Assembly: GCA_965204755.1 (NCBI GenBank)
Contig: OZ242011.1
Span: 3,424,001-3,488,000 of the forward strand
Direction of reading: 5' to 3'
Source: Candidatus Marinacidobacterium sp.
GTDB lineage: Bacteria; Acidobacteriota; Vicinamibacteria; Marinacidobacterales; Marinacidobacteraceae
DNA: 64,000 nt
The notes beneath the pieces were generated by a model. It saw only the letters and a list, made by a program, of their open reading frames with translations. It was not told the origin of the DNA and did no database searches. A program made the position numbers and the translations under genes. Positions 1 through 64,000 of the stretch are shown here, one piece after another (the first letter of the stretch is position 1; the number at the start of each line of letters is the position of its first letter).

Positions 1-711
1 CTCCGGGGCCGGGGCCGGCCGGACCAGGTCGGCGAGTCCGACCGCCGGGAGCGGTTCGTCCTCCGGCAGCCCGGCGAGTGAGTTGGTCAGCGCCCGATCG
101 ATCTTCCAGGGGATCGAGCCGTGCTGCAGGAACGCCCCTCGCCGCCACCGCTGCGCTCCGGTGACCAGTTTCCTTCCGCCGGCGCCGAGTTCGTGTCCGG
201 TGGCCACCGCCTGGCAGGGTCTCCGCAGGTCGCCGCCGCCAGCGGGTTCGACGGGCGACGGCGGGTCGAGCCGGACGAAGCCGGCGAGGCCATCCCGCAG
301 CGCGGCCATCACCAGCGCATAGGCGGCGCGCACCCGGGGCGGGCGGTCTCCCGCCGAGGACCCGGCGGCCGGCCCGGCGCGCGGAAGGTGGTTCCGGTGG
401 GCGGCGAAGGCGTAGGTGAGTTCGTCGGGGAGATGGAGGAGGGCCCGGCCGCCGCTGGGTCGGCGCGCCCACCGGATGCCCCGGTCGGCGAGCGCCTGCG
501 GGTCGCAGACCGGTTCCGGGCGCCGGGAGTGCCCGACGGTGAGGGTCGGTTCCGTCCAGCGGTAGAGCCGCAGGGTCGGCGGCGCGCCGGCGGCCGCGTC
601 GGCCAGCATCGCCGCGTCGCGCCGCATGTTCGTCCGCCCGTCGGCGGGCGTCCGGTCGAACACCGCCCGGAACGCCGCCGCGTCCGGGACGGCGGCCCCG
701 CTCCGGCTCAA
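1..711 (-). CDS. Lipoate-protein ligase family protein (LplA/LipM-like), 3' end runs off the window
   Basis: Not in the ORF track; my minus-strand translation gives NMRRDAAML...PTLRLYRWTEPTLTVG...RPTGGRA...ELTY...GRKLVTGAQR...AFLQHGSIP, the motif order of lipoate/biotin ligases. TTG start at 711 is tentative. Confidence 0.8.
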   Translation of the reverse strand, partial: MSRSGAAVPDAAAFRAVFDRTPADGRTNMRRDAAMLADAAAGAPPTLRLYRWTEPTLTVGHSRRPEPVCDPQALADRGIRWARRPSGGRALLHLPDELTYAFAAHRNHLPRAGPAAGSSAGDRPPRVRAAYALVMAALRDGLAGFVRLDPPSPVEPAGGGDLRRPCQAVATGHELGAGGRKLVTGAQRWRRGAFLQHGSIPWKIDRALTNSLAGLPEDEPLPAVGLADLVRPAPAPE

Positions 712-789
712 GCGGCCGTCAACCCGGCGTTGCGACCCGGTGGCCGGCCCCGGCTTCCGGCCCGCCGGCGCGGGCGATCCCGGAGTCGC

Positions 790-1905
790 TCAGGCGAGCA
801 GGGTCTCGATGGGTTGGTACTCGCGCTCCTGCGACTCCGCCACCGCCCGGCAGGTCAGGCGGCCGGCGTAGGTGTTGAACCCGTTCCGCAGGTGCGGGTC
901 GCGGCGGGCGGCTTCCTCCGGGCCGAGGTCGGCGATGGCGGCCGCGTAGTCGAGGGTGGCGTTCGTCAGCGCGTAGGTGGAGGTGCGCGGCATGGCGCCG
1001 GGCATGTTGGCCACGCAGTAGTGGACGACCCCGTCCACCACATAGGTGGGCTTGCTGTGGGTGGTGGGGCGGGTGGTCTCCGCGCAGCCGCCCTGGTCCA
1101 CCGCCACATCCACCAGCACCGAGCCCTCCCGCATCGCGCCGATCATCTCCCGGGTGATGACCTTCGGCGCCGCCGAGCCGGGGACGAGCACCGCCCCGAT
1201 GACCAGGTCGGACTCCGCCAGCGTCTCCGCCAGCGTCACCGCGTTGGACTTCAGGGTGGCCGCGCGGTTCCCGAAGATGTCGTCGAGCGCCCGCATCCGG
1301 GCGGCGCTCTTCTCCAGGATCGTGACTTCGGAGCCGAGCCCGACCGCCATCTTGGCGGCGTTCAGCCCGACGACGCCGCCGCCCACGACCGCCGTGCGGC
1401 CGCGCGGCACGCCCGGCACGCCGCCGAGCAGGATCCCGGAGCCGCCGCAGGTGCGATGCAGGTGGTGGGCGCCTTCCTGGATGGCCATCCGCCCGGCCAC
1501 TTCGCTCATCGGGGTGAGCAGCGGCAGGCTGCCGTCGTCCGAGGTGATCGTCTCGTAGGCGATCCCGGTGACGCCGCGTTCGAGCAGCCCGTCGGTGAGG
1601 TCGCGCAGCGGGGCGAGGTGGAGGTAGGTGTAGAGGATCTGGCCTTCGCGCAGGAGTTCCACCTCCTCGGCCAGCGTTTCCTTCACCTTCACCACCAGGT
1701 CCACCGTGGCGAAGACCTCTTCGCGGGTCTCGACGATCCGCGCTCCGGCGGCGGCGAACTCCTCGTCCGGGATCCGGCTGCCGAGCCCGGCGCCGGCCTC
1801 GACCAGCACCTCGTGGCCGCCGGCCACCAGGGTGTCGACCCCGCCCGGGGTCAGCCCCACCCGGTTTTCGTGGTCCTTGATTTCGCGGACGGTCCCGATC
1901 TTCAT
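790..1905 (-). CDS. ald: Alanine dehydrogenase
   Basis: [56 protein letters not shown] motifs; 371 aa. Confidence 0.96.
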
Positions 1906-1936
1906 CCGCCGCCCACCCCCGAGGACTTGCCGGGAC

Positions 1937-2437
1937 TCAGCGGGCGGCGGACTTCGGGGCCGGAGGGGAAGCGGCGGGCCGTCCGGGCTTCCCGGCGGAA
2001 CCTCCCGCGCCGCCGGCGGCCGGGGCCGCTCCGGCGGAGCGGCCGCCCGGCTGGCGCCGGATCTGGCCGCGGAACTCCGCGCCGGCCGAGACCTTCACCG
2101 CCGGCGCCCGGATGTTCCCTTCGAGCGACGCGGTTTCGCCGAGTTCCACCAGGCCCCCGGCGCTGATGTCGCCCTCGACGCGGCCGTGGACGGCCATCTG
2201 GCCGGCCTCGACCCCGGCTTCGACCTTGCCCCCCTGATGGACGACGACCGCGCTTCCGGCGGCGATGGTTCCGTCGAAGGAGCCGCGGACGAAGAGGTCC
2301 TCGTCGGTGTCGATCCGGCCGCTCACCCGGGTTCGCTCGCCGATCAGGGTGACTCGGGCGGGTCCGCCGCCGCGGTCCTCCGCCGTTGCCGGCTCGGGAG
2401 ATTCCTCGGCCTCAGCCGGGCGTCGAAACAGGGGCAT
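1937..2437 (-). CDS. Bactofilin (polymer-forming cytoskeletal protein)
   Basis: Beta-helix pattern [13 protein letters not shown]...[11 protein letters not shown]...VHGRVEGDI...[20 protein letters not shown]; start reassigned to ATG 2437 (MPLFRR), downstream of the tRNA. Confidence 0.88.
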
Positions 2438-2458
2438 CGGGTTCTCCGGGGAAGAGTC

Positions 2459-2534
2459 TGGAGCGGGCGACGGGGCTCGAACCCGCGACACCGAGCTTGG
2501 GAAGCTCGTACTCTGCCAACTGAGATACGCCCGC
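2459..2534 (-). tRNA. tRNA-Gly (anticodon CCC)
   Basis: Reverse complement GCGGGCGTATCTCAGTTGGCAGAGTACGAGCTTCCCAAGCTCGGTGTCGCGGGTTCGAGCCCCGTCGCCCGCTCCA: 76 nt cloverleaf, TTCGA T-loop, encoded CCA. Confidence 0.97.
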
Positions 2535-8878: not shown

Positions 8879-10525
8879 GTGATCCGCGAGATCCGGATTC
8901 GGGGCTTCAAGCGCTACGCGGACGCCCGCTTTCGGCTGCCGGAGCAGGTCGTGCTCGCCGGGCCGAACGACACCGGGAAGACGACGGTGCTGCAGGCGAT
9001 CGCTTCGTGGGCGTTCGCGTTTCGCCGCTGGCGGCGCGTCGTCGAGAGCGTCGAGCGGGGGCCGGACGGTTACGCCCTCGCGCCGATCTCGCGGCCGGCC
9101 TTCGCCGTGGCGCCGCTCCGGGGTTTCGACCAACTCTGGAAGGATCGGGACTATCGGGGCGTGGTGGAAATCACCCTTCGGCGTGACGACTGGACGGTCG
9201 CGATGGAGTTCCACGCCGACAGCGCCGAGCAGGTGTATGTCCGGCCCGCGGCGGAGGCGGCGCCGGCGCTCCTGGAAGCCCTGGACCTTCCCGTGATCTT
9301 CGCCCGCCCGGTGAGCGGGCTCGTGGCCGCGGAGCCGGAGTATCGGCGGGCGAAGGTGGACCAACTGCTCGCGCACGGGAGGGCCGGCGAGGCGCTCCGC
9401 AACTCGCTGGTGGAAGCGAGCCGCAGTCCGGCGGCCTGGGAGGCGCTGGGCGAGTCGGTCCGGCGGCTGTTCGGCTACACCTTGCTGCCGCCGGACACCG
9501 ACGGCCTGGATGTCCTCGTGGACTACCGGGAGAGCGACGCCGGCCCGGCGCTCGACATCGCCGGCGCGGGCAGCGGTTTCCACCAGGTCGTGATGCTGCT
9601 GGCGCTCCTCCACTCGCGGCCGGGGTCGGTGCTGCTGCTCGACGAACCGGACGCCCACCTCCACTTCATCCTCCAGGACGGCATCTGGCGGGAGTTGCGG
9701 CGGGTCGCCGCCGCGCAGCGCTCGCAGTTGATCTGCGCGACGCATTCCGAGGTGGTCATTTCGGCCGCCGAACCCCGGGAACTCCTGCTCACCCTCGATC
9801 CGCCCCGGCCGGTCGCCGACGATGTCGAGAAGGGCCGCCTGCTGTCGTCGCTGCGCGCCCTTTCGGGCGCCGACCTGGTGCAGGCGCCGGTCGTTCGCGG
9901 AATCCTCTATGTCGAGGACTACACCGACCTGGACCTGCTGAGCGCCTGGGCGCGCCGACTCGGACACCGGGCTTACGGCCTGCTCGCTGCGGAAATCATG
10001 TGGAAGCCGGTGGTCTTCGAGTCGGAGCGGGGCCGCCCGGGGATTCGTTCCCGCGACCACTACGAGGCGCTGCGCTCGGTCCGCCCGGACATCGCGGGGC
10101 TCGAACTGCGCGACGGCGACGCCCGGGACTCCGCGCGGGAGACCGGGATCTCCGGCGCCGGCCTGCAGCGGCTCCGCTGGCGCCGCTACGAGATCGAGAG
10201 TTACCTGCTGCATCCGGGAGCGCTCGCGCGTTTCGTCGAGAACGAACTCGGCGGGGGCGCTCCCGGCCTCGAGGCGCTTCGCGAGTGGTGGCGCCGGCAG
10301 TTGCCGCCGGCCCTGATCGAGGATCCCTTCGAGGACCACCCGCTGCTTCGGCAGGTGAAGGCGCGTACGGAACTCCTGCCGCCGATGCTCGCCGCCGCGG
10401 GCTTGCCGGACTTTCCTTACACGCGTTACCACGAGATCGCGGCGGCCATGGAACCCGCCGAGATCCACCCGGAGGTCGTCGAGAAACTGGACGCCGTCTG
10501 CCGCGCGTTCGGGGTGGACGCGTAA
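8879..10525 (+). CDS. ABC/SMC-type ATPase with C-terminal TOPRIM-like domain (OLD-family ATP-dependent nuclease-like)
   Basis: IRIRGFK, Walker A GPNDTGKT, GSGF signature, Walker B LLLDEPDAHLH, ATHS H-loop, then YVEDYTD, RDGD and YEIESYL. Confidence 0.8.
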   Translation: MIREIRIRGFKRYADARFRLPEQVVLAGPNDTGKTTVLQAIASWAFAFRRWRRVVESVERGPDGYALAPISRPAFAVAPLRGFDQLWKDRDYRGVVEITLRRDDWTVAMEFHADSAEQVYVRPAAEAAPALLEALDLPVIFARPVSGLVAAEPEYRRAKVDQLLAHGRAGEALRNSLVEASRSPAAWEALGESVRRLFGYTLLPPDTDGLDVLVDYRESDAGPALDIAGAGSGFHQVVMLLALLHSRPGSVLLLDEPDAHLHFILQDGIWRELRRVAAAQRSQLICATHSEVVISAAEPRELLLTLDPPRPVADDVEKGRLLSSLRALSGADLVQAPVVRGILYVEDYTDLDLLSAWARRLGHRAYGLLAAEIMWKPVVFESERGRPGIRSRDHYEALRSVRPDIAGLELRDGDARDSARETGISGAGLQRLRWRRYEIESYLLHPGALARFVENELGGGAPGLEALREWWRRQLPPALIEDPFEDHPLLRQVKARTELLPPMLAAAGLPDFPYTRYHEIAAAMEPAEIHPEVVEKLDAVCRAFGVDA

Positions 10526-14874: not shown

Positions 14875-14922
14875 GGGAATCGCCGTGAGCGCCCTTGGGG
14901 TGTGCGCGGGAACGGCGGGGGA

Positions 14923-14999
14923 ATTCTACGCGCCGGGGGCGTTCGAGGCTCCGGCTCGGCGGGGCCGACGGCTCGATTTCGTCGGCGGGTTGGTACGAT
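14923..14999. promoter_or_regulatory. Divergent putative -10 boxes: TAGAAT (minus, 14923-14928, def operon) and extended TGnTACGAT (plus, 14991-14999, helicase gene)
   Basis: Near-consensus AT-rich hexamers in a GC-rich intergenic region between divergent genes. Confidence 0.5.
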
Positions 15000-15007
15000 T
15001 CGCGCCG

Positions 15008-18000
15008 ATGAGCAGCGCTGGCGGTCGGCGAAGTCGCGCGGCCGTGGCGTCCTCGTGGGCTGGGACGACGGGGTCTCTCGGCGAGTACATCAAGAGCGAG
15101 TCCCGGAGGACCCTCTCGGCGTACCGAAAGCAGCCGACACTGGTCGCTGAGCACGCGAACCTGGAGATCGGGACGGCCGGCGGCGGGTACGCCGACCGTC
15201 AACTCGTGGAGTTGATCCAGAACAGCGCGGACGCTCTTGCGGGGCCGGCGGTCGGGGAGCGGGGACGCATCTCGATACGGTTGACCGACGACTGCCTGTA
15301 CTGCGCCGACAACGGGGACGAGATGGACGAAGACGGCGCCCGGGCGCTCATGTTCTCGCACCTCTCGCCGAAGCGGAGGGAGAGCGAGATCGGAAGGTTC
15401 GGCCTCGGGTTCAAGGCCGTACTCGGCGTTTCCGACGCGCCGGAGTTCTACAGCCGATCCGGGTCGTTTCGATTCGACCGCGGGAAGACTGCCGACCGCA
15501 TCCGCAAGATCGTTCCCGACCACGAGACTTACCCCGCGCTGCGTCTGGCGACCCCGATCGACCCGCGTGTGGCGGCGAGAGGGAATCGCATCCTCGCCGA
15601 GGAGATGGTTTGGGCTCGGAACATCGTTCGGCTGCCTCTTCTCGCGGGTGCGCGCAGTCGGCTGGAAGAGCAGATGCGGTCGTTTCCCACACCCTTCCTG
15701 CTCTTCGTCGAACATGTGCGCAGCCTTTCACTCTCGGGACACCGGGAGGATGAGGTCACCTGCGAAGTCGTGGAGAGGCGCGCCGACGGTGAGTGTGTAC
15801 TGCGGGTCGACGACGAGGAGCAGAAGTGGATCGTCTTCCGTCGGCGTCACCGTTTGTCGGAGGAAGCCATTGCCGAGTGGGCGCTGATCCGCGACCGAGC
15901 GGTAGTGCCGCTGTCGTGGGCCTTTCCGCAGGATGCCAGGCAGCGCGACGAACATCGCCACTTCTGGGCGTACTTCCGCACGGGAACGGAGAGTCTCGTT
16001 CCCGGAATCCTCAATGCGCCGTGGAAGACGAACGAGGACCGACAGAACCTCCTGCCGGGCGCGTTCAACCGGGACCTGCTCCAGGCGTCAGCGGACCTGA
16101 TCGTCCGCGAGCTCGGAAGTCTTCGTACCGCTGACGACCCGGCCCGCCACCTTGATGCGCTGCCGCGCCGCCAGGAGTCCGGCGACTCGGAACAGAGCAA
16201 GGAACTTCGAGTTTCCCTCATTTCGCAACTGCGCCATGACGCCGTTGTTCCCGACCAGACCGGGACCCTGCGCCCGATCGAGAGGTTGCAATATCCGCCG
16301 AAGGATGCGCCCCTCGCCGCCCTGGAGCGGTGGGCCGAGTGTGAGACGAGGCCCGCCGATTGGCTGCATGTTCGAGCGGCTTCCCGGGACCGAATCGCAA
16401 CGATCGGTCGGTTGTGGCGGTATCACCGGGCGAACCCGGAAGCCCGGGTCGGTGACCTGTCGTCATCCGTCCGTGGTCCGAGCGGGGCGAGCGACGCCGA
16501 CTTGCCGAGGGAGTCCGCCGAGGACTGGCTGGAAGCGCTGTTTTCGCCAGGACTGGATGAGGAGCAGGCCGCACGGGCGTCCCGGGTCGCCGTGCAGACT
16601 GCTGCGCTCCTTCCAGCGGGTCGTCACGACGGCGCACGGCACGACTTGGGAGAGATCGTCCTGACGGCCGCGGGCGGCCGCGCGCGCTTGGACCCCGCTG
16701 CCGTGTTCGTGCCTCGGAGAGGAACGGATGACGGGACTCAGGTATCGGCTGAACTCCTCGTGCATCCCAGAGTCGCCGAAGATGAGAAGACGCGGGCGGC
16801 GCTCGAGAAACTGGGACTCGGTGAGCCGCCGGCCGAGGCGGCGCTGCGAGCAGCCGTGAGGGAGATAACGGAGGCGCCGGGCGACAGCGCCCATCGGAAG
16901 TTTTGGTCGTGTGTCCGGGAGTCGTTGGCCAAGGACGGGCCGGACGCAGTGGCGGCGATTCTCGACGAGAACGAGTTCGCTCTTCGTCAAGTTCGGATTC
17001 GCACCGAGTCCGGCGCCTGGGAACCTGCCCACAGCGTTCTCCTGCCCGGCAGGATCGCTCGTGCGGGTGTCTCGGACGACTCGGATGTCACTGTGGACAT
17101 CGACTATCACCGAAGCGAACTTCCATTCCTGACCCACTTCGGTGTCGTGGAAGCGCCTGAACTTCGGGATCTCGGTCTGGAGTCGCTCGTGAACTATCGG
17201 GCCGAGTGCGTCGAGCGGTTCCGTTCCGACTGTAAGGGGGAGGGAGGCAGAGTGCCCATGTCGAACCGCCTCCGCTTCGAGAGCACCGAGGGAGTGGGCC
17301 CGCTTTCCGTGCTGTCTCGTTTGTCACACGAGGGCCGGGCGCTCTACACCGAAGCGATGCTCGGACTCGAAGCGACATACGCGCCGTGGACGATGGCGCA
17401 CGACGCTGGCGGTTACCCACCGCGGACCTTTCGTTCTCCCTCGCTGCGGGAGATCGAGCGACACGGACGACTCCGCGCGCGCGGCGGCAGCGTTCCATTC
17501 CAGGACGCTCTCGGTGAACCACCGAAGAGCGAGGAAGCGCTGCGGTTTCTCCTCGAGCATTCTCAGGCCGCGCGGATCCGACGGGTCTTTCGCTTGGCGA
17601 ACCTCACGCCGGAGTTCTTCGGCGAGGGCGAGCCGGAGCCGTTGTTCGATGTGTGGCCCGGACTGCAGGAGCATCTTCCCGACGCTTGGAAGGATTCGGA
17701 CTTGCGGCCGTGTGAACGAATCGTCGGGCTGGATGATCGGCCGTGCGCGACCTATCGCGGCGATGTCTATCTCGTTCGAACCGGGGACGATTCGGACGAC
17801 CTCAAGGCAGTTGCCGAAGAGTTGAATTTGGACCTTCGCGACGACCAGGTCGAGGACATCGCCAATCGGACGACACCCCAGGAAGTGGCCGCCCGACGGG
17901 CTGCCGTCCGCGCCTTGCCGAGCGAGGCGGAACGACTGCTCCGAGCCGTGGGAGAGGCAGGACTGCGGGCGCGGCTGCCGGGGTCGCTGGTGGCGCATCT

Positions 18001-19477
18001 GAGTGGAAGGAGCGAGGAAATATCGGGCGTGCGTATCGCGGAGGCGGCGATCGCGGTCTTCCAGACGGACACACTCCACGAATATCGCCGCTCGCTCGCG
18101 AAGTTCGCTCCGCCGCGGAAGTGGGCCGGATCGACCAAAGCGGTGGAATTCGTGGAATCGCTCGGCTTCCCTCCCGACTGGGCGGGTGAACCGGGCGGGA
18201 AGCGGGAGCCGTATATCGAAGTCGAGGGGCGCTTTCGTTTGGAGCCTCTGCACGATTACCAGCAGCAGATCGTGGCGGCGGTCCGTGCGATGTCGAACTC
18301 CACCAGCGAGGGGCCGACCGAGCGTCGGGGCATGCTCAGTCTTCCGACCGGGGCAGGGAAGACGCGGATCGCGGTGCAATCTCTCGTCGAGGCGCTGGTC
18401 GACGGGCAACTGTGCGGGCCGATTCTGTGGGTCGCCGATCGCGACGAACTCTGTGAACAGGCGGTCGAATCTTGGCGTCAGATCTGGTCGGCCAAGGGCA
18501 AGCCGGGAACCGTGCTCCGCGTCTCAAGACTCTGGGGAGGGCAGCGGGCGCCGGGTACCGCGCGCGATCTGCATGTGGTTGTCGCGACGATCCAGACGCT
18601 CCGGAGCCGCCTGTCTCGGCAGACGCTTCGGCCCGATTTCCAACTCGTCGTAGTCGATGAGGCCCACCGAACACTGGCGCAGAGTTTCACTCTGGTGTTG
18701 GCGGCGCTCGGACTCAAGCACCGCCGGAAGCCCGACGAGCCGTTCCTGCTCGGTTTGACGGCCACACCGTATCGCGGGTACGACGAAGACGAAACGAAGC
18801 GGCTCGTGAACCGCTACGGGAAAAACCGCCTGGATAGGGGAGTGTTCGGCGCCGCCGATTCGCAGGGAGTCGTTGTCGCGCTTCAGCAGCAGCGGATCCT
18901 CGCGCTCGCGGACCAGATGACCATCGAGGGAACGCGGCTCGAGATGACTGCGGAAGAGCGGCGGAAGATGGACCGGGCGCCGCACTGGCTCCCGGAGCAG
19001 GTCGAACGGCGAATCGGACAGGACCTGGAGCGGACGGAGCGGATCGTGGACGCGTTCGTGAGCCGTCGGAAGGCGGCTGGCCCGACCCTCATCTTCGCCA
19101 CTTCGGTGGAACACGCGCACACGGTGTCGGCGCTCCTGAACTTGCGGCGCGTCCGGTCCCGCGCCGTCAGCGGGAACACGAACCGGGGCACGCGGCGGCG
19201 GATCGTCGAAGAGTTTCGAGCGGAAGAGATCGAGGTTCTCGTGAACTACGGCGTCTTCCGTGAGGGGTTCGATGCGCCGAAGACTCGGACGATCATCGTG
19301 GCGCGGCCGGTGTACAGCCCGAACCTCTACTTCCAGATGATCGGGCGCGGGCTGCGCGGCGAGAAGAACGGCGGGAATGAGCGATGCCTGATCCTCAATG
19401 TCGCGGACAACATCGTGAACTTCAGGCGGAAACTCGCGTTCTCCGAGTTGGACTGGCTGTGGGCGGCCGGCGCGTAA
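15008..19477 (+). CDS. Large fusion protein: N-terminal sacsin-like GHKL ATPase plus C-terminal SF2 (ResIII/DEAH-type) helicase
   Basis: ELIQNSADA, ADNG, IGRFGLGFK at the N-terminus; LHDYQ, LPTGAGKT, VVDEAH, GLTATP, IFATSVEHA, EGFDAP, QMIGRGLR at the C-terminus. The track starts at GTG 14885; ATG 15008 is preferred because of the -10 box upstream. Confidence 0.85.
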   Translation: MSSAGGRRSRAAVASSWAGTTGSLGEYIKSESRRTLSAYRKQPTLVAEHANLEIGTAGGGYADRQLVELIQNSADALAGPAVGERGRISIRLTDDCLYCADNGDEMDEDGARALMFSHLSPKRRESEIGRFGLGFKAVLGVSDAPEFYSRSGSFRFDRGKTADRIRKIVPDHETYPALRLATPIDPRVAARGNRILAEEMVWARNIVRLPLLAGARSRLEEQMRSFPTPFLLFVEHVRSLSLSGHREDEVTCEVVERRADGECVLRVDDEEQKWIVFRRRHRLSEEAIAEWALIRDRAVVPLSWAFPQDARQRDEHRHFWAYFRTGTESLVPGILNAPWKTNEDRQNLLPGAFNRDLLQASADLIVRELGSLRTADDPARHLDALPRRQESGDSEQSKELRVSLISQLRHDAVVPDQTGTLRPIERLQYPPKDAPLAALERWAECETRPADWLHVRAASRDRIATIGRLWRYHRANPEARVGDLSSSVRGPSGASDADLPRESAEDWLEALFSPGLDEEQAARASRVAVQTAALLPAGRHDGARHDLGEIVLTAAGGRARLDPAAVFVPRRGTDDGTQVSAELLVHPRVAEDEKTRAALEKLGLGEPPAEAALRAAVREITEAPGDSAHRKFWSCVRESLAKDGPDAVAAILDENEFALRQVRIRTESGAWEPAHSVLLPGRIARAGVSDDSDVTVDIDYHRSELPFLTHFGVVEAPELRDLGLESLVNYRAECVERFRSDCKGEGGRVPMSNRLRFESTEGVGPLSVLSRLSHEGRALYTEAMLGLEATYAPWTMAHDAGGYPPRTFRSPSLREIERHGRLRARGGSVPFQDALGEPPKSEEALRFLLEHSQAARIRRVFRLANLTPEFFGEGEPEPLFDVWPGLQEHLPDAWKDSDLRPCERIVGLDDRPCATYRGDVYLVRTGDDSDDLKAVAEELNLDLRDDQVEDIANRTTPQEVAARRAAVRALPSEAERLLRAVGEAGLRARLPGSLVAHLSGRSEEISGVRIAEAAIAVFQTDTLHEYRRSLAKFAPPRKWAGSTKAVEFVESLGFPPDWAGEPGGKREPYIEVEGRFRLEPLHDYQQQIVAAVRAMSNSTSEGPTERRGMLSLPTGAGKTRIAVQSLVEALVDGQLCGPILWVADRDELCEQAVESWRQIWSAKGKPGTVLRVSRLWGGQRAPGTARDLHVVVATIQTLRSRLSRQTLRPDFQLVVVDEAHRTLAQSFTLVLAALGLKHRRKPDEPFLLGLTATPYRGYDEDETKRLVNRYGKNRLDRGVFGAADSQGVVVALQQQRILALADQMTIEGTRLEMTAEERRKMDRAPHWLPEQVERRIGQDLERTERIVDAFVSRRKAAGPTLIFATSVEHAHTVSALLNLRRVRSRAVSGNTNRGTRRRIVEEFRAEEIEVLVNYGVFREGFDAPKTRTIIVARPVYSPNLYFQMIGRGLRGEKNGGNERCLILNVADNIVNFRRKLAFSELDWLWAAGA

Positions 19478-23724: not shown

Positions 23725-24009
23725 CGGGGGCGTCGATCGGGAGCGAAAAAGGGTAGCCGGCGATTCCGGCGCCGGCGGCGCCTTCGAATGTGTTTCGGGC
23801 GCCCACGGCGGTTCCCGCGGTCCCCGCGCCGGTCGCCCGACCCGGCTCATCCGCGCCTTCCTCGACGGCCCCTCAGCCGCGGCCCGCCGCCCTGTGCGGC
23901 GGGGCGATTCCGCGTGACGGGAATCAGCTCAATTGGGGTATCCGCTCGGTCGTCGAGGTCGGCGCCGGCTGTGGAGCGGAAGACCGGCGACTCCTGGCGG
24001 TCGCGGGGC

Positions 24010-26485: not shown

Positions 26486-26507
26486 TCGGGAGCGCGGGGC
26501 GCCGGGG

Positions 26508-28709: not shown

Positions 28710-28713
28710 ACAA

Positions 28714-40542: not shown

Positions 40543-40546
40543 GGGT

Positions 40547-42526: not shown

Positions 42527-43885
42527 ATGGCCCTCACCAAGACTCCGCTGCTCGCGGAAACGGTGCGCAAACTGGTGTCGCGGGGGGCCTACGCTAACGC
42601 CCACCGCCTCCTCTCCAAACTGCATCCGGCGGATGTGGCGCAGGTCCTCGCCGATCTCCCGGAGGCGTACCGGCTGAAGACCTTCCGGGCGGTCTTCCAG
42701 CGCGACACCGCGCTGGCCGCGGAGGCGCTCGGGGAATTCGGCGCCGAACGGGGCGCCGGACTGGTGGCCGGGCTCGAGACCGGGTACATCTCGCAACTCC
42801 TCCAGGAACTCGACCCGGACGACGCGGCGGAGTTCCTGAGCGCGCTCCCCGAGGAGCGCCGGGAGCGGGTGCTCGCCGGGATGCGGGCGCGCGAGGCGTC
42901 CGATGTCGAGGACCTGCTGCAGTACCCGGAGGAGACCGCCGGGCGGATCATGAGCCCGAAGGTGTTCTCCATCGCCGAGAACACCACCATCGGCGAAGCC
43001 ATCCGGCGGCTGCAGGAATCACCGGATGTGGAGATGGTCTTCTACATCTATGTGGTGGACGAGCACGGCACGCTGGTCGGGGTGCTGTCGCTGCGCCAAC
43101 TGCTGCAGCGGCGGCCGGAAGCGCCGCTCTCCGAGGTCATGGTCACCGATGTGCTCAGGGTGCGCACGGACATGGACCAGGAGGAAGTGGCGCAACTCGT
43201 CGCCAGTTACAACATCCTGGCGGTGCCGGTGGTGAACCACCACGGCAAACTGGTCGGCGTCATCACCGTGGACGACATCATCGATGTCATCAAGGAAGAG
43301 GCGACCGAGGACATGTACCGGCTCGCCGGACTGGGCGCCGCGGAGAGCGTGTTCACGAAGGCGCGTCGTTCCGTGGGTATGCGCCTCCCCTGGCTCACCG
43401 TGAACCTGGCGACGGCGTTCCTCGCTTCGTGGGTCGTCAGCCAGTTCGAGGCCTCCATCGCCCGGTTCGCGGTGCTGGCGGTGTTCATGCCGATGGCGCC
43501 GCTGCTCGGCGGGAACGCCGGCAGCCAGACGCTCACCGTGATGGTGCGGGGTATCGCGCTCGGCGAACTCAGTTGGAAGAACAGCCGCAAGGCGCTGTTC
43601 AAGGAACTCTCGGTGGGCGCGGTGAACGGCGCGCTCATCGGCCTGCTCATCGGCGGCTTCGCCTACCTGTGGAAGGGCGATCCCCGGATCGGGCTGGCGC
43701 TGACGCTGGCGATGCTGGGCACGATGATCGTCGCCGCCGTGGCGGGCACGCTCATGCCGCTCCTCCTGCGCTGGCTGCGGGTGGACCCGGCCTTGGCCTC
43801 TTCGGTCTTCGTGACCACCGCCACCGATGTCTCCGGTTTCCTCCTGTTCCTCGGTTTGGGCGTCACCGCGCTGACCCACTTCTGA
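42527..43885 (+). CDS. mgtE: Magnesium transporter MgtE
   Basis: LHPAD, DDAA, YPEETAGRIM, CBS pair, RLPWL, GGNAGSQ, DPALAS, TATD. Confidence 0.96.
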   Translation: MALTKTPLLAETVRKLVSRGAYANAHRLLSKLHPADVAQVLADLPEAYRLKTFRAVFQRDTALAAEALGEFGAERGAGLVAGLETGYISQLLQELDPDDAAEFLSALPEERRERVLAGMRAREASDVEDLLQYPEETAGRIMSPKVFSIAENTTIGEAIRRLQESPDVEMVFYIYVVDEHGTLVGVLSLRQLLQRRPEAPLSEVMVTDVLRVRTDMDQEEVAQLVASYNILAVPVVNHHGKLVGVITVDDIIDVIKEEATEDMYRLAGLGAAESVFTKARRSVGMRLPWLTVNLATAFLASWVVSQFEASIARFAVLAVFMPMAPLLGGNAGSQTLTVMVRGIALGELSWKNSRKALFKELSVGAVNGALIGLLIGGFAYLWKGDPRIGLALTLAMLGTMIVAAVAGTLMPLLLRWLRVDPALASSVFVTTATDVSGFLLFLGLGVTALTHF

Positions 43886-43933
43886 ACGCGCCGCCTCCCG
43901 GCGGTCCGCGGAGCGCCCCGCCGGAGTTCCGCG

Positions 43934-44509
43934 CTACTCGGCGCCGCTCTGCCGGGGAGGCGCGTCGAACCGGAAGTCGGCCCAGTTGGCGAAGAGCCGC
44001 TGGAGGGCCGTGACCGGAACGAACTCCGACCGCGGGTATCCCATCGCCCGCAGCAACTCGTTGTGGCAGAGCGTGTCCAGCACCCGCAGCACCGGCGGCT
44101 CGTCGGATTCGATGGCCAAGCGCTCCCGCGTCGCTTCCACGATCGCTGGTTCGGACGGCGACGAACCCGCCGCGATCAGGCGGCGCTCGAGCGCGATGAA
44201 GCGCCGTCCCAGGTCCGTGTGGAGGCTCGCCTTCCGCATGGAGCCGACTACCAGGTCCACGAGCGCCATGACCGTCACGGCCGCCGGGACCGCCACCTTG
44301 ACCCAACTCGGCAGATTCGCTGTCAACTCGGAGCCGAAAGCGGCGATGGTGGCCGACCCGGAGGCGGCCGCAACCACGAGCACCACATCGTGGAAGCGCT
44401 CGTAGAAGCGCCGGCGGCGCATGTGGTAGCGGACCGAACGACGCACTCCGAAGAGGAGCATCCGGTACTCCTCTTCGAGCCGCTCCCGATCGGACAGCGT
44501 CGAAGCCAT
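43934..44509 (-). CDS. Two-TM protein with SLATT-like architecture
   Basis: RSVRYHMRRRRFY, TM1 (VVLVVAAASGSATIAAF), TM2 (VAVPAAVTVMALVDLVVG), KASLH...RFIALE, helical tail IESDEPP. Confidence 0.7.
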   Translation of the reverse strand: MASTLSDRERLEEEYRMLLFGVRRSVRYHMRRRRFYERFHDVVLVVAAASGSATIAAFGSELTANLPSWVKVAVPAAVTVMALVDLVVGSMRKASLHTDLGRRFIALERRLIAAGSSPSEPAIVEATRERLAIESDEPPVLRVLDTLCHNELLRAMGYPRSEFVPVTALQRLFANWADFRFDAPPRQSGAE

Positions 44510-44518
44510 GTGGCGATA

Positions 44519-44722
44519 TTAGCGCTCCGCCGGAGCGGCGTGTTCGGACGAAGGAGGCTTCGGGGGACTGGGGGGTGGAGTCCGCGGCGGCACATTGGTG
44601 TCCGTAGTGCGGGAGGGACCCTCCTGGCGGGGCCCGCGCTCCTCGAATCTCTTCTCCACCGGCTGTCGCCGGGTTCGTTCGGGCTGCGGATGCCTGCGCT
44701 CCGGCGGCCTGCGATCGCCCAT
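44519..44722 (-). CDS. Small proline-rich hypothetical protein (67 aa)
   Basis: ATG 44722 with GGAAGG upstream; ends 9 nt before the SLATT-like gene; CATAAT -10-like box at 44790-44795. Confidence 0.5.
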   Translation of the reverse strand: MGDRRPPERRHPQPERTRRQPVEKRFEERGPRQEGPSRTTDTNVPPRTPPPSPPKPPSSEHAAPAER

Positions 44723-44982
44723 GTCGTTCCCTTCCGAGGCCGGGGCCCCAGGTGGAGGCGCCCCGCTCAGTCGGGCGTCCCGCGGCGTCATTATGCCCCG
44801 CGGCGGGCGCCCCTCGGGGAGCGCCGACGATCGGCCGAGCCGCCGCGTCGGGTCGTTTCCGTCGGGCCGTTCCCGTCGGGCCGCGTGGGGCTACTCTCCG
44901 CGCCGACTCGGCGGGCCGGCGCAGCCGCCCGAACCGTCCCCGGCCTCTTCGCCGAACCTTCCTTCCCACTCCCGGTTTCGAC

Positions 44983-45797
44983 ATGCCCCTGAACCAGGCC
45001 CGTTGTTTCGTGCTCAAGACGCATGCGGTCGGGGAGACCGACAAGGTGGTCGCGCTGTTTTCCGCCGAGGAAGGGAAGGTGCGCGCCTGGGCCAATCGCG
45101 CGCGGCGGCCGAAGTCGCGGTTCGGGGGGGCGCTGGAAGTCGGGAACGAGGTGGAGGCGCAGTGGTTCGAGCGGGAGAACCGGGAACTGGTGACGCTCGA
45201 CCGGTGTGAACTCGTCTCCTCGGCGCTCCCGCTGGTGCGGGATCCCCGGCGGGGGGCGGCGCTCGGGTACTTCTCGGAACTCGTGGCGCTCTTCGCCGGC
45301 GAGCGGGAGCCCCACCCCAAGACCTACCGGTTGCTGGACACCTGCCGGGCGGCGCTGCTCGACGACCGGTCGCCGCTGCTTCTCGCCGGGTACTTCGAGT
45401 CGTGGCTCCTGCGGCTCGCCGGGCTCTACCCGCGGGCCGGGGTCTGCGGCTGCGGGGTGGAATTCGACGCCGGGGACGCGTTGTTCTTCCCCGGCGGGCC
45501 GGAGTTCCGCTGCGCTTCGTGCGCGGCGGGTCGCGGGGAGCCGGCCGGGCGGCTCACCCCGGCGGGGGTCTCGCTGTTGCGGCGGTTTCGCGCGGTCCCG
45601 CCGGCGGAGGCGGCTTCGCTCGCGGCGCCCGCCGCAGCCGCTGCGGAGGAAGTCTTCCGGTTCCACGGAACGGTCGTCCGCGCCGCGGCCGAGCACTCGC
45701 TCCCCGCGCGCCGCCTGCTGGAACGGGCGCTCGCCCCGGCTTCCGACGGAGCGTTCGCGCCCCCGGCCCGGGCGGAGAGCGCCGCGGGAGCGCGGCC

Positions 45798-45801
<4 letters not shown>
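44983..45801 (+). CDS. recO: DNA repair protein RecO
   Basis: GETDKVVALFS..GK, ARRPKSRFGGALE, C-x-C...CASC zinc motif; upstream of glyQ. Confidence 0.92.
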
Positions 45802-46678
<877 letters not shown>

Positions 46679-60162: not shown

Positions 60163-61601
60163 TCCCGCCGCTCGCCCCGGGCGCCCGGATCCACCTGCTG
60201 GGCGCCGCCGGGACCGCGATGGCCTCCCTCGCCGGGCTGCTCTCCGCCCTCGGGTACCGGGTCTCCGGCTCCGACGAGCGCGCCTACCCGCCGATGTCCA
60301 CCCTGCTGGAGGACCTGGGCATCCCCCTCCGCGCGCCGTTTTCGGCGGACAACCTCCCGGCGGACGCCGCGGCGGTCGTCGTGGGGAACGCCGTCTCCCG
60401 CGGGAATCCGGAACTCGAGGCCGCGCTCGACCGGGGGGATCTGCTGGTCTCCTTCCCGGAGACCCTGCGGGAACTCGTCCTCCGGGAGCGCCGCCCGGCG
60501 GTCGTCGCCGGCACCCACGGGAAGACCACGACCACCTCCCTCCTCGCCTGGATCCTGCGGACCGCCGGCCGGGACATCGGCTACCTGGTGGGCGGGGTGG
60601 CGCCGGACCTCGGCGGGAGTTTCCGCCCCGGCGCCCCCGGCGAACCGTTCGTGGTCGAGGGCGACGAATACGACACCGCGTACTGGGACAAGGGGCCGAA
60701 GTTCCTCCACTACCTGCCGGAAGTCGCCGTCGTCGGGAATGTGGAGTTCGACCACGCGGACATCTACCCCGACTTCGCCGCGGTGCGGCGGGCGTTCTCG
60801 TTCCTCGCCCGGCTGCCGCCCCGCCGGGGCCTGCTCCTGCTCGGCGCCGACTCGCCGGCCGCGGCGGCGCTCGCCGAATACGCCCACACCACCGCGCGGA
60901 CCTTCGGCCTGTCCGAAGGGGCGGACTGGCGGGGCGTCCCGGAGTCGTCCGGGCCCTCGGGCACCCGCCTCGCGGTCCGCCGAGGCGGCGAGGCGCTGGC
61001 CCCGCTGGAGGGGAGGTTCTGGGGAGACGCCGGCTGCCGCAACCTGCTCGCGGCCGCCGCTGCAGCGGACTGGCTCGGCGCCCCCTGGGAGGCGGTGCGG
61101 GCGGCCGCGGCTTCCTTCCGGGGGGTGGCGCGCCGGCTGGAAGTCCTTTCGGATCGGGGGGAGGGAAGGGAGCGGATCGTGGTGGCGCGGGACTTCGCCC
61201 ACCACCCCACGGCGGTCGCTTCGGTGGTCGAGGCCGCCGGGAAGAGATGGCCGGGCGCCCGGATCGTCGCCGTCTTCGAGCCCCGTTCCTTCACCGCCCG
61301 GAGCCGGGTGTTCCAGCAGGAGTTCGCCGCCGCCTTCCGGGGCGCCGCCGCGGTGCTCCTCTCGGGCGCCCCGGAGGGCCGCGGCCGACCCTCGCGGGAG
61401 GCCTCCCGCCTCGACCTCCCGCGACTCGCGGAGGCGCTGGCCGCGGAGTGCGAGTCGGCGGCGGTCGCGGAAACCCCGGAAGACCTCGTGGAGCGCGCCG
61501 TCTCCCTCGCGGAGGCCGCCCCGCCGACCGTCCTCCTGTTCCTGTCGAACGGCCACTTCGCCGCAGTCCCCGAACAGGCCGCCGCCCGCCTCCGGGGCTG
61601 A
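60159..61601 (+). CDS. mpl: Murein peptide ligase (Mpl/MurC-like)
   Basis: IHLLGAAGTAMASLA, GSD..YPPMST, GNAVSRGNPE, GTHGKTTT, EGDEYDTAY, EFDHADIY, DFAHHPTA, EPRS, LSNG. Confidence 0.92.
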   Translation: MIPPLAPGARIHLLGAAGTAMASLAGLLSALGYRVSGSDERAYPPMSTLLEDLGIPLRAPFSADNLPADAAAVVVGNAVSRGNPELEAALDRGDLLVSFPETLRELVLRERRPAVVAGTHGKTTTTSLLAWILRTAGRDIGYLVGGVAPDLGGSFRPGAPGEPFVVEGDEYDTAYWDKGPKFLHYLPEVAVVGNVEFDHADIYPDFAAVRRAFSFLARLPPRRGLLLLGADSPAAAALAEYAHTTARTFGLSEGADWRGVPESSGPSGTRLAVRRGGEALAPLEGRFWGDAGCRNLLAAAAAADWLGAPWEAVRAAAASFRGVARRLEVLSDRGEGRERIVVARDFAHHPTAVASVVEAAGKRWPGARIVAVFEPRSFTARSRVFQQEFAAAFRGAAAVLLSGAPEGRGRPSREASRLDLPRLAEALAAECESAAVAETPEDLVERAVSLAEAAPPTVLLFLSNGHFAAVPEQAAARLRG

Positions 61602-61660
61602 CGCGGCGGGCGTCCGGGGGGCCCGTCCGCCGGCGGGCGATTCCGGACAAATGTCTGGTT

Positions 61661-62395
61661 ATGGTTCCGGGCGTGAACACCCGGAGCGGGGCGGCCGCGC
61701 CGGCGCGGGCCGGCCGGAGGGTCGTCCGGCGCGGCGCGCCGACGAACGACCTGGTCCTGAGCGCCTACGCCGCGTCGAACGAGCAGGTGTTCCCGAAGGT
61801 CCTGGCGCTCTATGTCGCTCCCGGCAGCACCGTGGCCGATGTGACCCACGGGAAGGGGGTCTTCTGGCGGCTGGTGGCGCCGGCCCGCTACCGGTTACTG
61901 GCCACCGACCTCGGCGACGGGGTGGATTGCCGCGACCTTCCGTACGGGGACGAATCCGTGGATTGCGTGGTTCTCGACCCTCCGTACATGCATTCCCCGG
62001 GAGGGACGGCGCACTCCGGGCAAGAACCTTTCGAGTCCTACTACCGGAACAACGACGCGGGCCGCCGCGCTTCGGCGAAGTACCACGAAGCCGTGCTCGA
62101 ACTCTATGTGGACGCAGGCAGGGAAGCGCGGCGCGTATTGCGCGCCCGAGGCGTCTTCATCGTGAAGTGTCAGGACGAGGTCTGTTCCAACCGGCAGCGG
62201 TTCACGCATGTGGAACTCATGCGCGCATACGGGGAGATGGGTTTCGTCGCCGAAGACCTCTTCGTCGTCATGCGGAACAACCGACCGGGCGTCAGCCGGA
62301 CCGAGCGGCAGGTACACGCCCGGAAGAACCATTCGTACTTCCTCGTGTTCTGGAAGAGGGGAGAAGGAAGCGCGATCTGGAAACCGCCGGACTGA
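61661..62395 (+). CDS. Small orphan amino-methyltransferase (N6-adenine/N4-cytosine DNA methyltransferase-like)
   Basis: SAM-binding-like ADVTHGKGVFW followed by VVLDPPY, then EARRVL..GVFIVKCQD, HARKNHSYFLVF; start ATG 61661 or GTG 61673. Confidence 0.78.
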   Translation: MVPGVNTRSGAAAPARAGRRVVRRGAPTNDLVLSAYAASNEQVFPKVLALYVAPGSTVADVTHGKGVFWRLVAPARYRLLATDLGDGVDCRDLPYGDESVDCVVLDPPYMHSPGGTAHSGQEPFESYYRNNDAGRRASAKYHEAVLELYVDAGREARRVLRARGVFIVKCQDEVCSNRQRFTHVELMRAYGEMGFVAEDLFVVMRNNRPGVSRTERQVHARKNHSYFLVFWKRGEGSAIWKPPD

Positions 62396-62430
62396 GCGCC
62401 GTCGAACGGCTCCCGCCGACTCCGGTTCGG

Positions 62431-62458
62431 CGATACCCCGGACGCGTTCCGGGTATCG
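62431..62458. terminator. Hairpin between convergent genes (possible bidirectional terminator)
   Basis: CGATACCCCGGA-CGCGT-TCCGGGTATCG inverted repeat; no U-tract. Confidence 0.4.
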
Positions 62459-62508
62459 GCGCGGGGTTCCGTCCCCGCTCCGCGGGTATCAGTCCCCGCT
62501 CCGCGGGA

Positions 62509-63999
62509 TCAATCCCTGCTGCGCGGGGGGCGGCCTTCCCGGACGAGGGGGCCGAGGACATCGGCGTCGAGGTCGGCGCGGCGGACGATGCGGGGGGTGA
62601 GCGTCAGGATGATGTCCGACTCCTGGGAGCGGTCGGTGGTGTTGCCGAAGAGCCGGCCGAGCAGCGGGAGGTCGGCGACCCCGGGGATCCCGTTCAGGGT
62701 GGTGCGCTCCTCCTGGCGGATCAGGCCGGCGATCATGCTGGTTTCGCCGTTCTGGAGGCGGAGGGTGGTTTCGACGGCGCGGTTCCCGAAAGTCGGCAGC
62801 CCGGAATACCCGGTGCCGGAAACATTGTCGAGCCGGACCTTCACTTCGAGGGTCACCGTGTCGTCGTGGTGGATGCGGGGCAGCACCTCGATGCTGACGC
62901 CGACATTCTCGTATTCGAAAGTCGTCGTCGGTTGTTGCGCGAGTCCCCCGGCGGCGATCGGGGCGAAGGTGGTCACCGGCACCGGGACCCGCTCGCCGAA
63001 GTCGGCGGTGGCGGTCTTGCCGTCCGAGGCCCTCAGTTGCGGGTTGGCGAGCACCTGCGTGTCGGTGTCGGTCTTCACCAGCCGCAGCACCGCCGCCGGC
63101 AGGCCGGTGACTTTCAGGTTGGAGACCGCGTAGGGATTGGTGAGCACGGTGTCCAGCCGGGGCGCGAGCGCGAGCGCGATCCCTTCGGAACCCGGACTCA
63201 GCAGCGGCACGCCGTATTGCTGCAGGTGGTCCCGGTTCACTTCCATCAACTCGACATCCACGATGACTTCGCCCGGGCTCCGGTCGAGCGCTTCCACGAT
63301 GCGGGCGGCGGCGCGCACCTGCTCCCAGGTGTCCACCATCGTGATGGAGTTCGTCCCGGCGTGCTGCGCGATCTGTCTCAGACCGAGCGTGAGGCGGAGC
63401 GCGTCCATGGTTTCCACGATGTCGGCGGTGGAGAGGTAGAAGGTCTGGACGACTTCCTGTTCGTAACGCGACCGCTTCTGCGGGGTGTCGGGTATGACGG
63501 TGATGAGTTCCGGTGATTCCACCCGGAAGAAGTGGCCGGTGGTCGAAGTGAGGCCGCGGAGCGCGTCTTCGAAGGTCGAGTCCTCGGCTTCGATGGACAC
63601 CGGCCGATCCACGAAGTCCTCGTCGAAGGCGATGTTCACGCCGCCGATCTCGCCGAGGGTGAGCAGCACGGCGCGGAGGCCGGCGTCCCGGAACACGAAA
63701 CTCGCCGGCGCGCGGGCGCCGTCGAGGAGGTCGAGGCCGAAGGGCCGGGCGAGCGTCCGTTCCTTGAGTTCCGCCAGCGTCGCCGCCCGGGCGGCGTCGT
63801 CCTGGGCCTCGGCCGCTTCGCGCGCTTCGACGAGCCGCCGCTGGTAGCCGGCGTCCTCGGGGGCGAAGAGGACCGCCGTCCGCAGTTCGTCCTCCGCGCC
63901 CCGGTAGTCCTCGGCGGCCATTCGCCGCTCGGCCTCGGCGGCGTGCTCCTCCGCCGCCCGCAGTTTCACCCGCGCCAGCGCCATCCGGGCTTCGGGGTC
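62509..63999 (-). CDS. Secretin (type II secretion GspD/PilQ family) with TPR-like N-terminal part; 5' end outside the window
   Basis: FVFRDA..VNIAFD N0 domain, QTFYLS, VIVDVELMEV, VLANPQL, GERVP, YENVGV, P(R)IH, AGLI, GIPGVADLPLLGRLF, LTPRIV. Confidence 0.92.
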   Translation of the reverse strand, partial: DPEARMALARVKLRAAEEHAAEAERRMAAEDYRGAEDELRTAVLFAPEDAGYQRRLVEAREAAEAQDDAARAATLAELKERTLARPFGLDLLDGARAPASFVFRDAGLRAVLLTLGEIGGVNIAFDEDFVDRPVSIEAEDSTFEDALRGLTSTTGHFFRVESPELITVIPDTPQKRSRYEQEVVQTFYLSTADIVETMDALRLTLGLRQIAQHAGTNSITMVDTWEQVRAAARIVEALDRSPGEVIVDVELMEVNRDHLQQYGVPLLSPGSEGIALALAPRLDTVLTNPYAVSNLKVTGLPAAVLRLVKTDTDTQVLANPQLRASDGKTATADFGERVPVPVTTFAPIAAGGLAQQPTTTFEYENVGVSIEVLPRIHHDDTVTLEVKVRLDNVSGTGYSGLPTFGNRAVETTLRLQNGETSMIAGLIRQEERTTLNGIPGVADLPLLGRLFGNTTDRSQESDIILTLTPRIVRRADLDADVLGPLVREGRPPRSRD

Positions 64000-64000
64000 G

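Follow-up and report, generated by a model that had tools for sequence, protein, structure and literature searches.

Near-complete loss of the words ACGT and AGCT from the genome of a Candidatus Marinacidobacterium, consistent with long-term restriction-site avoidance

Introduction

For restriction-site avoidance in general, the work of Gelfand and Koonin from 1997 and of Rocha et al. from 2001 is reportedly cited. According to the part of a later survey that is considered here, orthodox Type II systems of long standing give rise to avoidance, which grows with their residence time and can outlast their loss, the cut-off being an observed-to-expected ratio (O/E) of 0.78 (Rusinov et al., 2015, PMC4687349). 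Here, we describe the near-absence of two words, ACGT and AGCT, from a stretch of 64,000 bases of Candidatus Marinacidobacterium sp., an uncultured bacterium of the class Vicinamibacteria (Acidobacteriota) with a marine or sponge-associated habit (the window; assembly GCA_965204755.1, contig OZ242011.1, positions 3,424,001 to 3,488,000) and from its entire genome, a single contig of 3,975,858 bases obtained by metagenome assembly. In kind this is a case of restriction-site avoidance, and in degree it is extreme. As in the avoidance described in that part of the survey, short palindromes fall below their Markov expectation, the deficit is shared by close relatives, and foreign DNA is less purged; unlike there, two 4-mers reach an O/E of 0.01 to 0.045, far from the threshold (PMC4687349). 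It also differs in that no cognate enzyme pair was identified, and in that several other restriction-modification (R-M) systems resident in this genome leave no such trace.

AluI recognises AGCT, while MaeII and HpyCH4IV recognise ACGT. The likeness of these systems to the present case lies in their recognition words. A different route to missing words is the decay of 5-methylcytosine, known from the CpG depletion of vertebrates and from the Dcm hot spots of E. coli, where Vsr repair is at work. The present case resembles such decay in that the target words hold a methylatable cytosine and their products in genes are C-to-T words, but differs from it in that these products are not enriched in unconstrained DNA, that depletion is also found where the C-to-T change is non-synonymous, and that Vsr is present.

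Among unexplained cases, the closest is that of the A-clade pandoraviruses, which have lost AGCT and for which restriction and methylation were tested and excluded, as far as the part of the report considered here goes (Poirot et al., 10.1101/712018). According to the same part, AGCT is there, too, nearly gone from a GC-rich megabase genome, in a lineage-specific manner, from genic and intergenic DNA alike and with non-directional replacement; however, pandoraviruses are viruses of eukaryotes and their ACGT is normal, whereas the genome studied here is that of a bacterium with dozens of methyltransferases and is purged of ACGT as well (10.1101/712018). In haloarchaeal viruses, the tetramers CTAG and GATC are wholly absent, as is AGCT in HRTV-7, which the part of the study considered here attributes to host restriction (PMC7230728). 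Those are small viral genomes that escape the enzymes of their hosts, whereas here a cellular chromosome is purged (compared with the same part of PMC7230728); the haloviruses represent the phage side of the phenomenon.

Depletion of both words in the window and the genome

ACGT is not found in the window, whose guanine-plus-cytosine (GC) content is 73.6%, although 90.1 occurrences are expected under a second-order Markov model and 150.2 from base composition. AGCT is found four times, against a Markov expectation of 119.2. A first-pass annotation, made by a model from the letters of the window without database searches, had arrived at the same counts and at the correct positions of all four survivors (Table 1). 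It had also described other words as common, which is accurate for the palindromes it listed (GATC 352, TCGA 471, GTAC 80, CATG 103, GGCC 793) and for the non-palindromic ACCT (196) and AGGT (219). A word outside its list, CTAG, is also low: it occurs twice in the window against 39 expected and, at a genome-wide O/E of 0.13, is the next lowest word after ACGT and AGCT. Across the genome, ACGT is present 265 times against 7,147 expected (O/E 0.037) and AGCT 332 times against 7,446 (O/E 0.045).

Codon usage is excluded as the source of this depletion. Genes were represented by 1,767 crude calls, i.e., long open reading frames (ORFs) with a GC3 > GC1 > GC2 pattern, which cover 65% of the genome. 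Ten shuffles of synonymous codons within these genes gave 4,655 +/- 38 ACGT and 5,943 +/- 33 AGCT, whereas 74 and 73 are observed, corresponding to an O/E of 0.016 and 0.012 under the codon-preserving null. The Markov and codon-shuffle comparison which the first-pass annotation had proposed thus leaves the depletion standing for window and genome. In codon pairs, the avoidance is nearly absolute: Asp preceding Val is written GAT 1,709 times and GAC 18 times (99.0% GAT, versus 10.5% elsewhere), and for Asp, Asn, His and Tyr the T-ending codon makes up 98.7 to 99.1% before Val, compared with 5.7 to 14.5% elsewhere. Before T, the share of ACG among Thr codons is 0.4% (38% elsewhere) and that of AGC among Ser codons 0.4% (25.7% elsewhere). 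Glu-Leu pairs are encoded by GAA-CTN in 3,179 cases, by GAG-TTR in 1,100 and by GAG-CTN in 14. Both words are depleted in all three reading frames (O/E 0.008 to 0.071), as well as in 625 short intergenic gaps amounting to 85.6 kb, where ACGT is found 4 times against 107 expected (0.04) and AGCT 11 times against 105 (0.11). The depletion acts on DNA as such, coding and non-coding, and in any frame.

Two further features of word usage were observed genome-wide. T-ending four-fold codons are 3-4 times commoner before a codon that starts with T (for GGT, 19.0% versus 4.3%), and G-ending four-fold codons are rarer there. Weaker depletions affect GTCGAC (O/E 0.20), CTATAG (0.14), GTAGAC (0.19), GTATAC (0.38) and TTCGAA (0.47), and are probably traces of further restriction systems.

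Surviving sites and foreign DNA

The sites that remain are unevenly distributed: 194 of the 398 10-kb bins contain none, while 340 of the 597 sites fall into 41 bins. Sites are most numerous in the bin of the rRNA operon, which has 31 of them within 8 kb, and the 67 tRNAs (5,444 nucleotides) retain 32 sites, 27 AGCT and 5 ACGT. Two of the window's survivors had been placed in the anticodon stem of a tRNA, and both are indeed found flanking the anticodon loop of tRNA-Gly(CCC), one on each side, at RNA-sense positions 29 and 38; this pair is retained through structural constraint. The density of survivors also depends on GC content. At a GC content below 0.60, there are 120 to 200 sites per 100 kb, which is about normal. 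The density falls to 56 to 79 for a GC content of 0.60-0.64 and to about 20 for 0.64-0.68, and native DNA of at least 0.68 has only 1.7 to 6. The bases flanking surviving sites are varied. Survivors are therefore concentrated in constrained RNA genes and in low-GC, foreign-looking islands; the purge has gone less far in foreign, recently acquired DNA than in native DNA, and it is graded with foreignness. It had been claimed at first that the words are purged even in foreign-looking genes. This applies to the lower-GC parts of the window (at 14-20 kb, with a GC content of 0.68, ACGT 0 versus 15.3 expected and AGCT 1 versus 12.3), but not to the youngest-looking islands of the genome, which keep both words.

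Some long-read consensus sequences contain systematic errors at methylated motifs, and the genome is a single-contig metagenome assembly, so that base-calling or assembly errors at methylated motifs might have erased the words. This reading is rejected as extremely improbable: both words are retained in tRNA and rRNA genes, the replacements are overwhelmingly synonymous, the ACGT purge is also present in three other assemblies, one of them in 410 contigs, and contigs of independent runs from other studies agree with the window to about 98.4 to 100%. Among the 40 of the 509 differences from these contigs that were listed, none restores a word; chance alone (a neutral share of 3%) would give 1.2, so that the comparison has no power by itself. 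Eight studies of sponge and marine metagenomes yielded runs with near-identical strains (about 1 to 1.6% divergence), and no RNA data set is among the runs listed. When positions 26001-46000 of the window are compared with runs X4 and X9, C<->G transversions form the largest class of differences (in X9, 67 C>G and 57 G>C among 333), an unusual pattern between closely related strains.

Replacement words: selection or decay

The purge could also have come about without selection, if resident C5 methylation of both words were followed by deamination, of 5-methylcytosine or induced by the methyltransferase, that outpaces re-creation of the words. The genome does encode six C5-methyltransferases, and the first-pass annotation had named C5 methylation with deamination next to restriction as a cause. 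Its observation that ATGT, ACAT, AGTT and AACT replace the missing words in genes is borne out by codon-pair counts (the hyphen marks the codon boundary): xAT-GTx is in excess by 3,029, xAA-CTx by 2,851, xAG-TTx by 2,019 and AGT-T by 977. However, these C-to-T-like words are the only synonymous escapes from xAC-GTx, xAG-CTx and AGC-T, so that their excess in genes is forced by the genetic code and does not in itself point to deamination. ACG-T has three synonymous escapes and is replaced mostly by ACC (+508) and ACT (+645), the C-to-T product ACA gaining just 52; a general NNT-T preference accounts for part of the ACT excess. On the side of decay, ACA before T is raised about 2.3-fold, roughly as a flux argument predicts.

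The frames in which a C-to-T change alters the protein on both strands are depleted as well: xxA-CGT is found 16 times against 226 expected (O/E 0.07) and xxA-GCT 14 times against 249 (O/E 0.056), a 14 to 18-fold depletion that speaks against deamination. It is about 5 times weaker than in the other frames (O/E 0.008 to 0.018), and the deeper purge of frames with a synonymous C-to-T route is what decay would produce. Since a very high deamination rate together with about 20% acceptance could mimic these values, the frame test alone is not decisive. Intergenic DNA offers a further comparison: it is as poor in the two words as genes are, yet their products are not above controls. In the 625 gaps, the second-order O/E is 0.98 for ATGT, 1.07 for ACAT, 0.87 for AGTT and 1.02 for AACT; by first-order expectation the products are 1.4 to 1.6-fold, next to 2.3 to 2.4 for TGTA/TACA and 1.4 to 1.7 for AAGT/ACTT, which served as controls of matched composition. 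A directional C-to-T change at intergenic sites, for which a check against relatives had been proposed, is not seen in these word counts. Of the two causes initially named, site avoidance fits the data, and methylation with deamination is not supported as the driver.

An alignment with 12 non-purged relatives covers 389 and 355 sites at which these have ACGT and AGCT (115 non-independent ortholog pairs of about 10 genes). The central-transition products stand at 53% and 57% of these sites in the genome, as expected from decay, besides many other replacement words. Both residues are conserved at 41% of these sites, compared with 51 to 57% at control words, which implies that some removals cost an amino-acid change. 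Moreover, Vsr genes lie near five of the six C5-methyltransferases, and Vsr repair pushes toward site retention; CCWGG is undepleted in spite of a resident EcoRII-type system with its methyltransferase; and homologous methyltransferases reside in the non-purged hosts G179, G083 and G223 (see below). Together, the replacement tests favour selection against the word over directional decay, and we regard decay as an improbable cause of the purge.

Distribution among relatives

Genomes are denoted by G numbers, G000 being that of the window, G001 its congener (genus g1) and all others those of relatives. In a first survey, which used 20-kb samples around LeuRS from 20 relatives, G001 was the only one with both words purged (ACGT 0 versus 20 expected, AGCT 2 versus 29). 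In G005, ACGT alone is purged (2 versus 24, with AGCT at 54 versus 67), and in the remaining 18 both words are near an O/E of 1. GACGTC was counted over the whole of 401 genomes from the class (among which G033, G383 and G244 are unpublished, ordinary rows on which no result depends). The counts are lowest in G000 (45), G001 (72), G005 (80), G007 (119) and G006 (139), and continue from 404 upwards. In G007, the low count reflects a genuine purge of ACGT (19 versus 88 expected in 60 kb, with AGCT at 156 versus 174), whereas in G006 ACGT is normal (71 versus 77) and only the 6-mer is affected. GAGCTC, counted in 55 genomes of the order, is found 29 times in G000, 143 times in G001 and at least 613 times in every other genome. 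Both words are purged only in this genus; two further genera of the family have lost ACGT but not AGCT. The case of G006 (genus g6) is a separate, 6-mer-specific avoidance within the same family, GACGTC being about 10-fold rarer there than in three congeners (139 versus 888 to 1,681).

In a tree of the LeuRS gene, the order of branching is g1 (G000 and G001), g4, g7 and the pair (g5, g2), supported at 83 to 96, and the ACGT-purged genera do not form one clade to the exclusion of normal genera. On this one-gene tree, the pressure on ACGT would have arisen or spread more than once, or have been relaxed twice; it might thus recur or spread, as mobile R-M systems do. Because the purge of AGCT is confined to this genus and that of ACGT extends to two others, the two words are subject to separate pressures. 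The relatives provide a natural experiment within one family, with both words, one word or neither purged.

Methyltransferases and candidate cassettes

Sponge-associated microbes are reported to be rich in R-M genes, and so is this genome, in which profile searches matched six C5-methyltransferases (PF00145), six Vsr (PF03852), 28 N6_N4, nine N6_Mtase and one D12. None of the C5-methyltransferases, labelled M1 to M6, lies in the window, as the first-pass annotation had said. A Vsr gene is situated within about 4 kb of five of them, and none was found near M4 (neighbours in Table 1). The M3 locus has PADLOC matches to PDC-M33A (8.2e-93), PDC-M33B (2.5e-40) and PDC-M33C (9.9e-23) in adjacent genes, an order that is repeated in G001, G179 and G083. 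The M6 locus matches PDC-M33A (6.1e-06) and DUF6339 weakly. The large A-type partner proteins of both loci may contain GHKL-like motifs, judging by eye.

Within the family comparison, an M3 orthologue (72.6% identity, same gene order) is present only in G001. An M6 orthologue (79%, whole cassette) is present in G005, as the only C5 enzyme found there, and the M6-syntenic site of G001 contains an M6 relative of 42% identity. The M3 and M6 cassettes of G000 are themselves purged of both words and hence are old residents. If the marks are 5-methylcytosine, as in systems of the AluI and MaeII types, M6 would by elimination be the candidate for ACGT and M3 that for AGCT. This pattern fitted five relatives, but as an account of the cause it was rejected, since it failed across the 401 genomes of the class, where whole homologous cassettes occur in hosts without depletion. 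Weaker M6 relatives in G239, G246, G350 and G111 are likewise not accompanied by depletion. G007, in which ACGT is purged, has no C5 enzyme found in its assembly (86% complete, 410 contigs). In addition, the M6-like cassette of G001 is only half purged and thus would have arrived later than the purge. With almost all 30 methyltransferase loci purged and CCWGG close to expectation, age alone singles out no culprit.

Other methyltransferase families were considered as well. N6_N4 enzymes were rejected, since the members in G005 with homologues in G000 are also present in non-purged genomes, and N6_Mtase enzymes because none is common to all purged genomes. One D12 enzyme is common to G000, G001 and G005 and absent from G014; it is orphan-like in G005 and may be a loose candidate. 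Regarding the specificity of the M3 family, 4,505 homologue matches carried no informative names, and sequence matches in the PDB were to HhaI/HaeIII-type enzymes only. A metagenome scan with the M3 alignment found relatives of at most 49% identity, and none of 46 loci of at least 6 kb is AGCT-depleted, a result that is uninformative on M3 itself.

Some rearrangements of these loci were observed. A transposase gene lies inside the M3 cassette of G000 and is absent there in G001 (Table 1), and the D12 methyltransferase adjoining the cassette has opposite orientations in the two genomes. Judged from the sequences, the cassette at the M6-syntenic site of G001 seems to have been exchanged for another, with the Vsr gene left in place.

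The unusual composition of the cassettes raises the question of a non-classical agent, either a methyltransferase-linked, multi-gene, ATP-dependent defence module of the PDC-M33 kind or a DNA-level process like that of pandoraviruses, which would select against the words. We consider this unlikely. In its favour, no orthodox R-M system of ACGT or AGCT specificity was found in the genome, and the methyltransferases shared specifically by purged genomes sit only in unusual cassettes (M3 with PDC-M33A, B, C and Vsr; M6 with a distant version), whose own purge marks them as old. The part of the pandoravirus report considered here adds the precedent of a 4-mer eliminated without a recognisable R-M system (10.1101/712018). 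However, cassettes of the M3/M6 type occur in three genomes without depletion, the variable region of M3 is equally conserved in undepleted carriers and in the purged congener, and the part of the survey considered here finds avoidance for orthodox Type II systems only (PMC4687349). Furthermore, the model predicted for PDC-M33B (pLDDT, a predicted local distance difference test, of 92.5), a beta-sandwich followed by a helical C-terminal part, shows no nuclease fold; at E <= 0.001 it has no fold match in the PDB, and as far as this model goes, the protein does not look like any known nuclease. PDC-M33B matches 1,127 cluster representatives at E <= 0.001. Searches of Pfam, NCBIfam and, by sequence, the PDB gave nothing for the A and B proteins of the cassettes, and all matches of the A protein in Atlas are hypothetical proteins. 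No papers on PDC-M33 or DUF6339 were found in the literature, supplements being outside the search. The more specific proposal that the purge stems from uncharacterised restriction modules, composed of a C5-methyltransferase, an ATPase-like protein, a beta-sandwich protein, DUF6339 and Vsr, which would read 4-bp words and be self-toxic over long residence, is quite doubtful. If true, it would provide a function and a target for a widespread candidate defence system, and a possible model for the AGCT loss of pandoraviruses.

Other features of the window and the genome

The features with coordinates are collected in Table 1. The N6_N4_Mtase match of the window covers just positions 1-109 of the 221 of the profile, and the ORF is probably a remnant or truncated methyltransferase; none of the tests that were run supports a link to the purge. 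The 1,530-amino-acid protein that contains one of the survivors has a ResIII/DEAD helicase part at its C-terminus and a weak sacsin-like Pfam match, and its N-terminal part matches PADLOC TmtA (Tiamat) with an E of 4.8e-50. Phage genes were searched for with TerL_ATPase and HK97 capsid profiles, of which neither has a match in the genome.

Table 1. Location of the features discussed (window, position in the 64,000-base stretch; G000:C1, position in the genome).
Feature	Location	Strand	Remark
Whole window	window 1..64000		ACGT gone, AGCT down to 4; local sample of genome-wide purge
tRNA-Gly(CCC)	window 2459..2534	-	Carries AGCT at 2494 and 2503, two of the four window survivors
AAA_21/AAA_15 ATPase	window 8879-10525	+	AriA/GajA/PtuA-like PADLOC matches; possible defence gene near helicase
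Surviving AGCT in helicase gene	window 16110..16113		Within 1,530-amino-acid ORF 14885-19477 (+)
Surviving intergenic AGCT	window 23926..23929		Flanked by UbiD-family ORF (21853-23850, -) and AAA-ATPase ORF (24010-25641, -)
Only DNA-methyltransferase-like sequence of the window	window 61247..62395	+	N6_N4_Mtase match, E 3e-07, genome 3485958-3486368
Six C5-methyltransferases	G000:C1 1048715, 1262827, 1519950, 1860858, 2393071, 2907185		
M1			Neighbour: EcoRII-N/C endonuclease
M2			Neighbours: Vsr and 385-amino-acid protein without known family
M3			Neighbours: PDC-M33A, B, C, Vsr, then D12 methyltransferase
M4			Neighbour: HATPase_c_3 protein (Pfam)
M5			Neighbour: HATPase_c_3 protein (Pfam)
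M6			Neighbours: three genes of similar layout, weak PDC-M33A and DUF6339 matches, then Vsr
DDE transposase (DDE_Tnp_1)	G000:C1 1257200-1258882		Between DUF6339 and Vsr genes of M3 cassette
PDC-M33B gene	G000:C1 1259928-1260821	-	M3 cassette
CRISPR-like array (clustered regularly interspaced short palindromic repeats)	G000:C1 3176410-3176990		Outside window; about 8 to 9 repeats of 37 nucleotides, spacers about 35 nucleotides
Site syntenic with M6 cassette of G000	G001 L133:2754-11339		Methyltransferase 42%, Vsr about 63 to 78% identical

Discussion

The purge is, on balance, probably the outcome of long-term selection against the two words as DNA, i.e., of restriction-site avoidance that is genome-wide and specific to the lineage. 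Under this explanation, a mutation that destroys ACGT or AGCT would be favoured and one that creates such a word would be removed, and within genes the code would leave almost only synonymous escapes of the C-to-T type, by which the purge comes to resemble deamination. The agent would most likely be the self-toxicity of long-resident 4-bp R-M activities, either still present or already lost, and the responsible enzymes would be AluI-like for AGCT and MaeII/HpyCH4IV-like for ACGT.

Several observations weigh against restriction-site avoidance. A restriction enzyme or methyltransferase of either specificity was not identified in the genome, so that we infer restriction, and the genes that would encode it, from the pattern of the purge. 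CCWGG has an O/E of 0.94 despite a resident EcoRII-like R-M system with C5-methyltransferase and Vsr, its specificity being assumed from homology; long residence of an R-M system alone thus does not purge its site in this genome. The 25 to 80-fold purge lies far past the cut-off of 0.78 given in the part of the survey considered here (PMC4687349), and a comparable bacterial case of two 4-mers was not found in the literature. The raw intergenic counts of AGTT and AACT add up to 210, compared with 128 for the reversed controls, and there may be a minor directional component for AGCT. Selection and hypermutation give a similar equilibrium within genes, so that the discrimination between them relies mainly on the 85.6 kb of intergenic DNA, delimited by crude gene calls.

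A further difficulty is posed by the carriers of cassettes that are not depleted: ACGT is at 175 versus 162 expected in G223 (M6, 64% identity), and AGCT at 114 versus 85 in G179 (M3, 68%) and 85 versus 98 in G083 (M3, 60%). The cassette DNA in these three genomes contains the words at normal frequency, and carriers are sporadic within genera (1 of 10 in g29), which would be compatible with a recent arrival in undepleted hosts. In the variable region, the enzyme of G223 is 44 to 55% identical to M6, whereas that of M3 has diverged in G179 no further than it has in G001. This comparison leaves room for G223 as an exception, but not for G179 or G083. Given that avoidance is tied to orthodox Type II systems and can persist after their loss, according to the part of the survey considered here (PMC4687349), a lost or unrecognised pair of simple enzymes fits at least as well as the cassettes.

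The purge lowers two 4-mers 25 to 80-fold and overrides the choice of codons in 99% of the codon pairs concerned, which places it among the strongest that we were able to document in a cellular genome. It also provides a concrete case in which replacements that look like C-to-T changes can arise in genes from the genetic code and are no proof of deamination. Within this genome, the local density of ACGT and AGCT may serve as a practical marker for dating foreign DNA. Two conserved, uncharacterised methyltransferase cassettes are singled out as candidates, and restriction-site avoidance would predict that this uncultured sponge- or marine-associated lineage has, or has recently lost, two restriction activities directed at 4-bp words.

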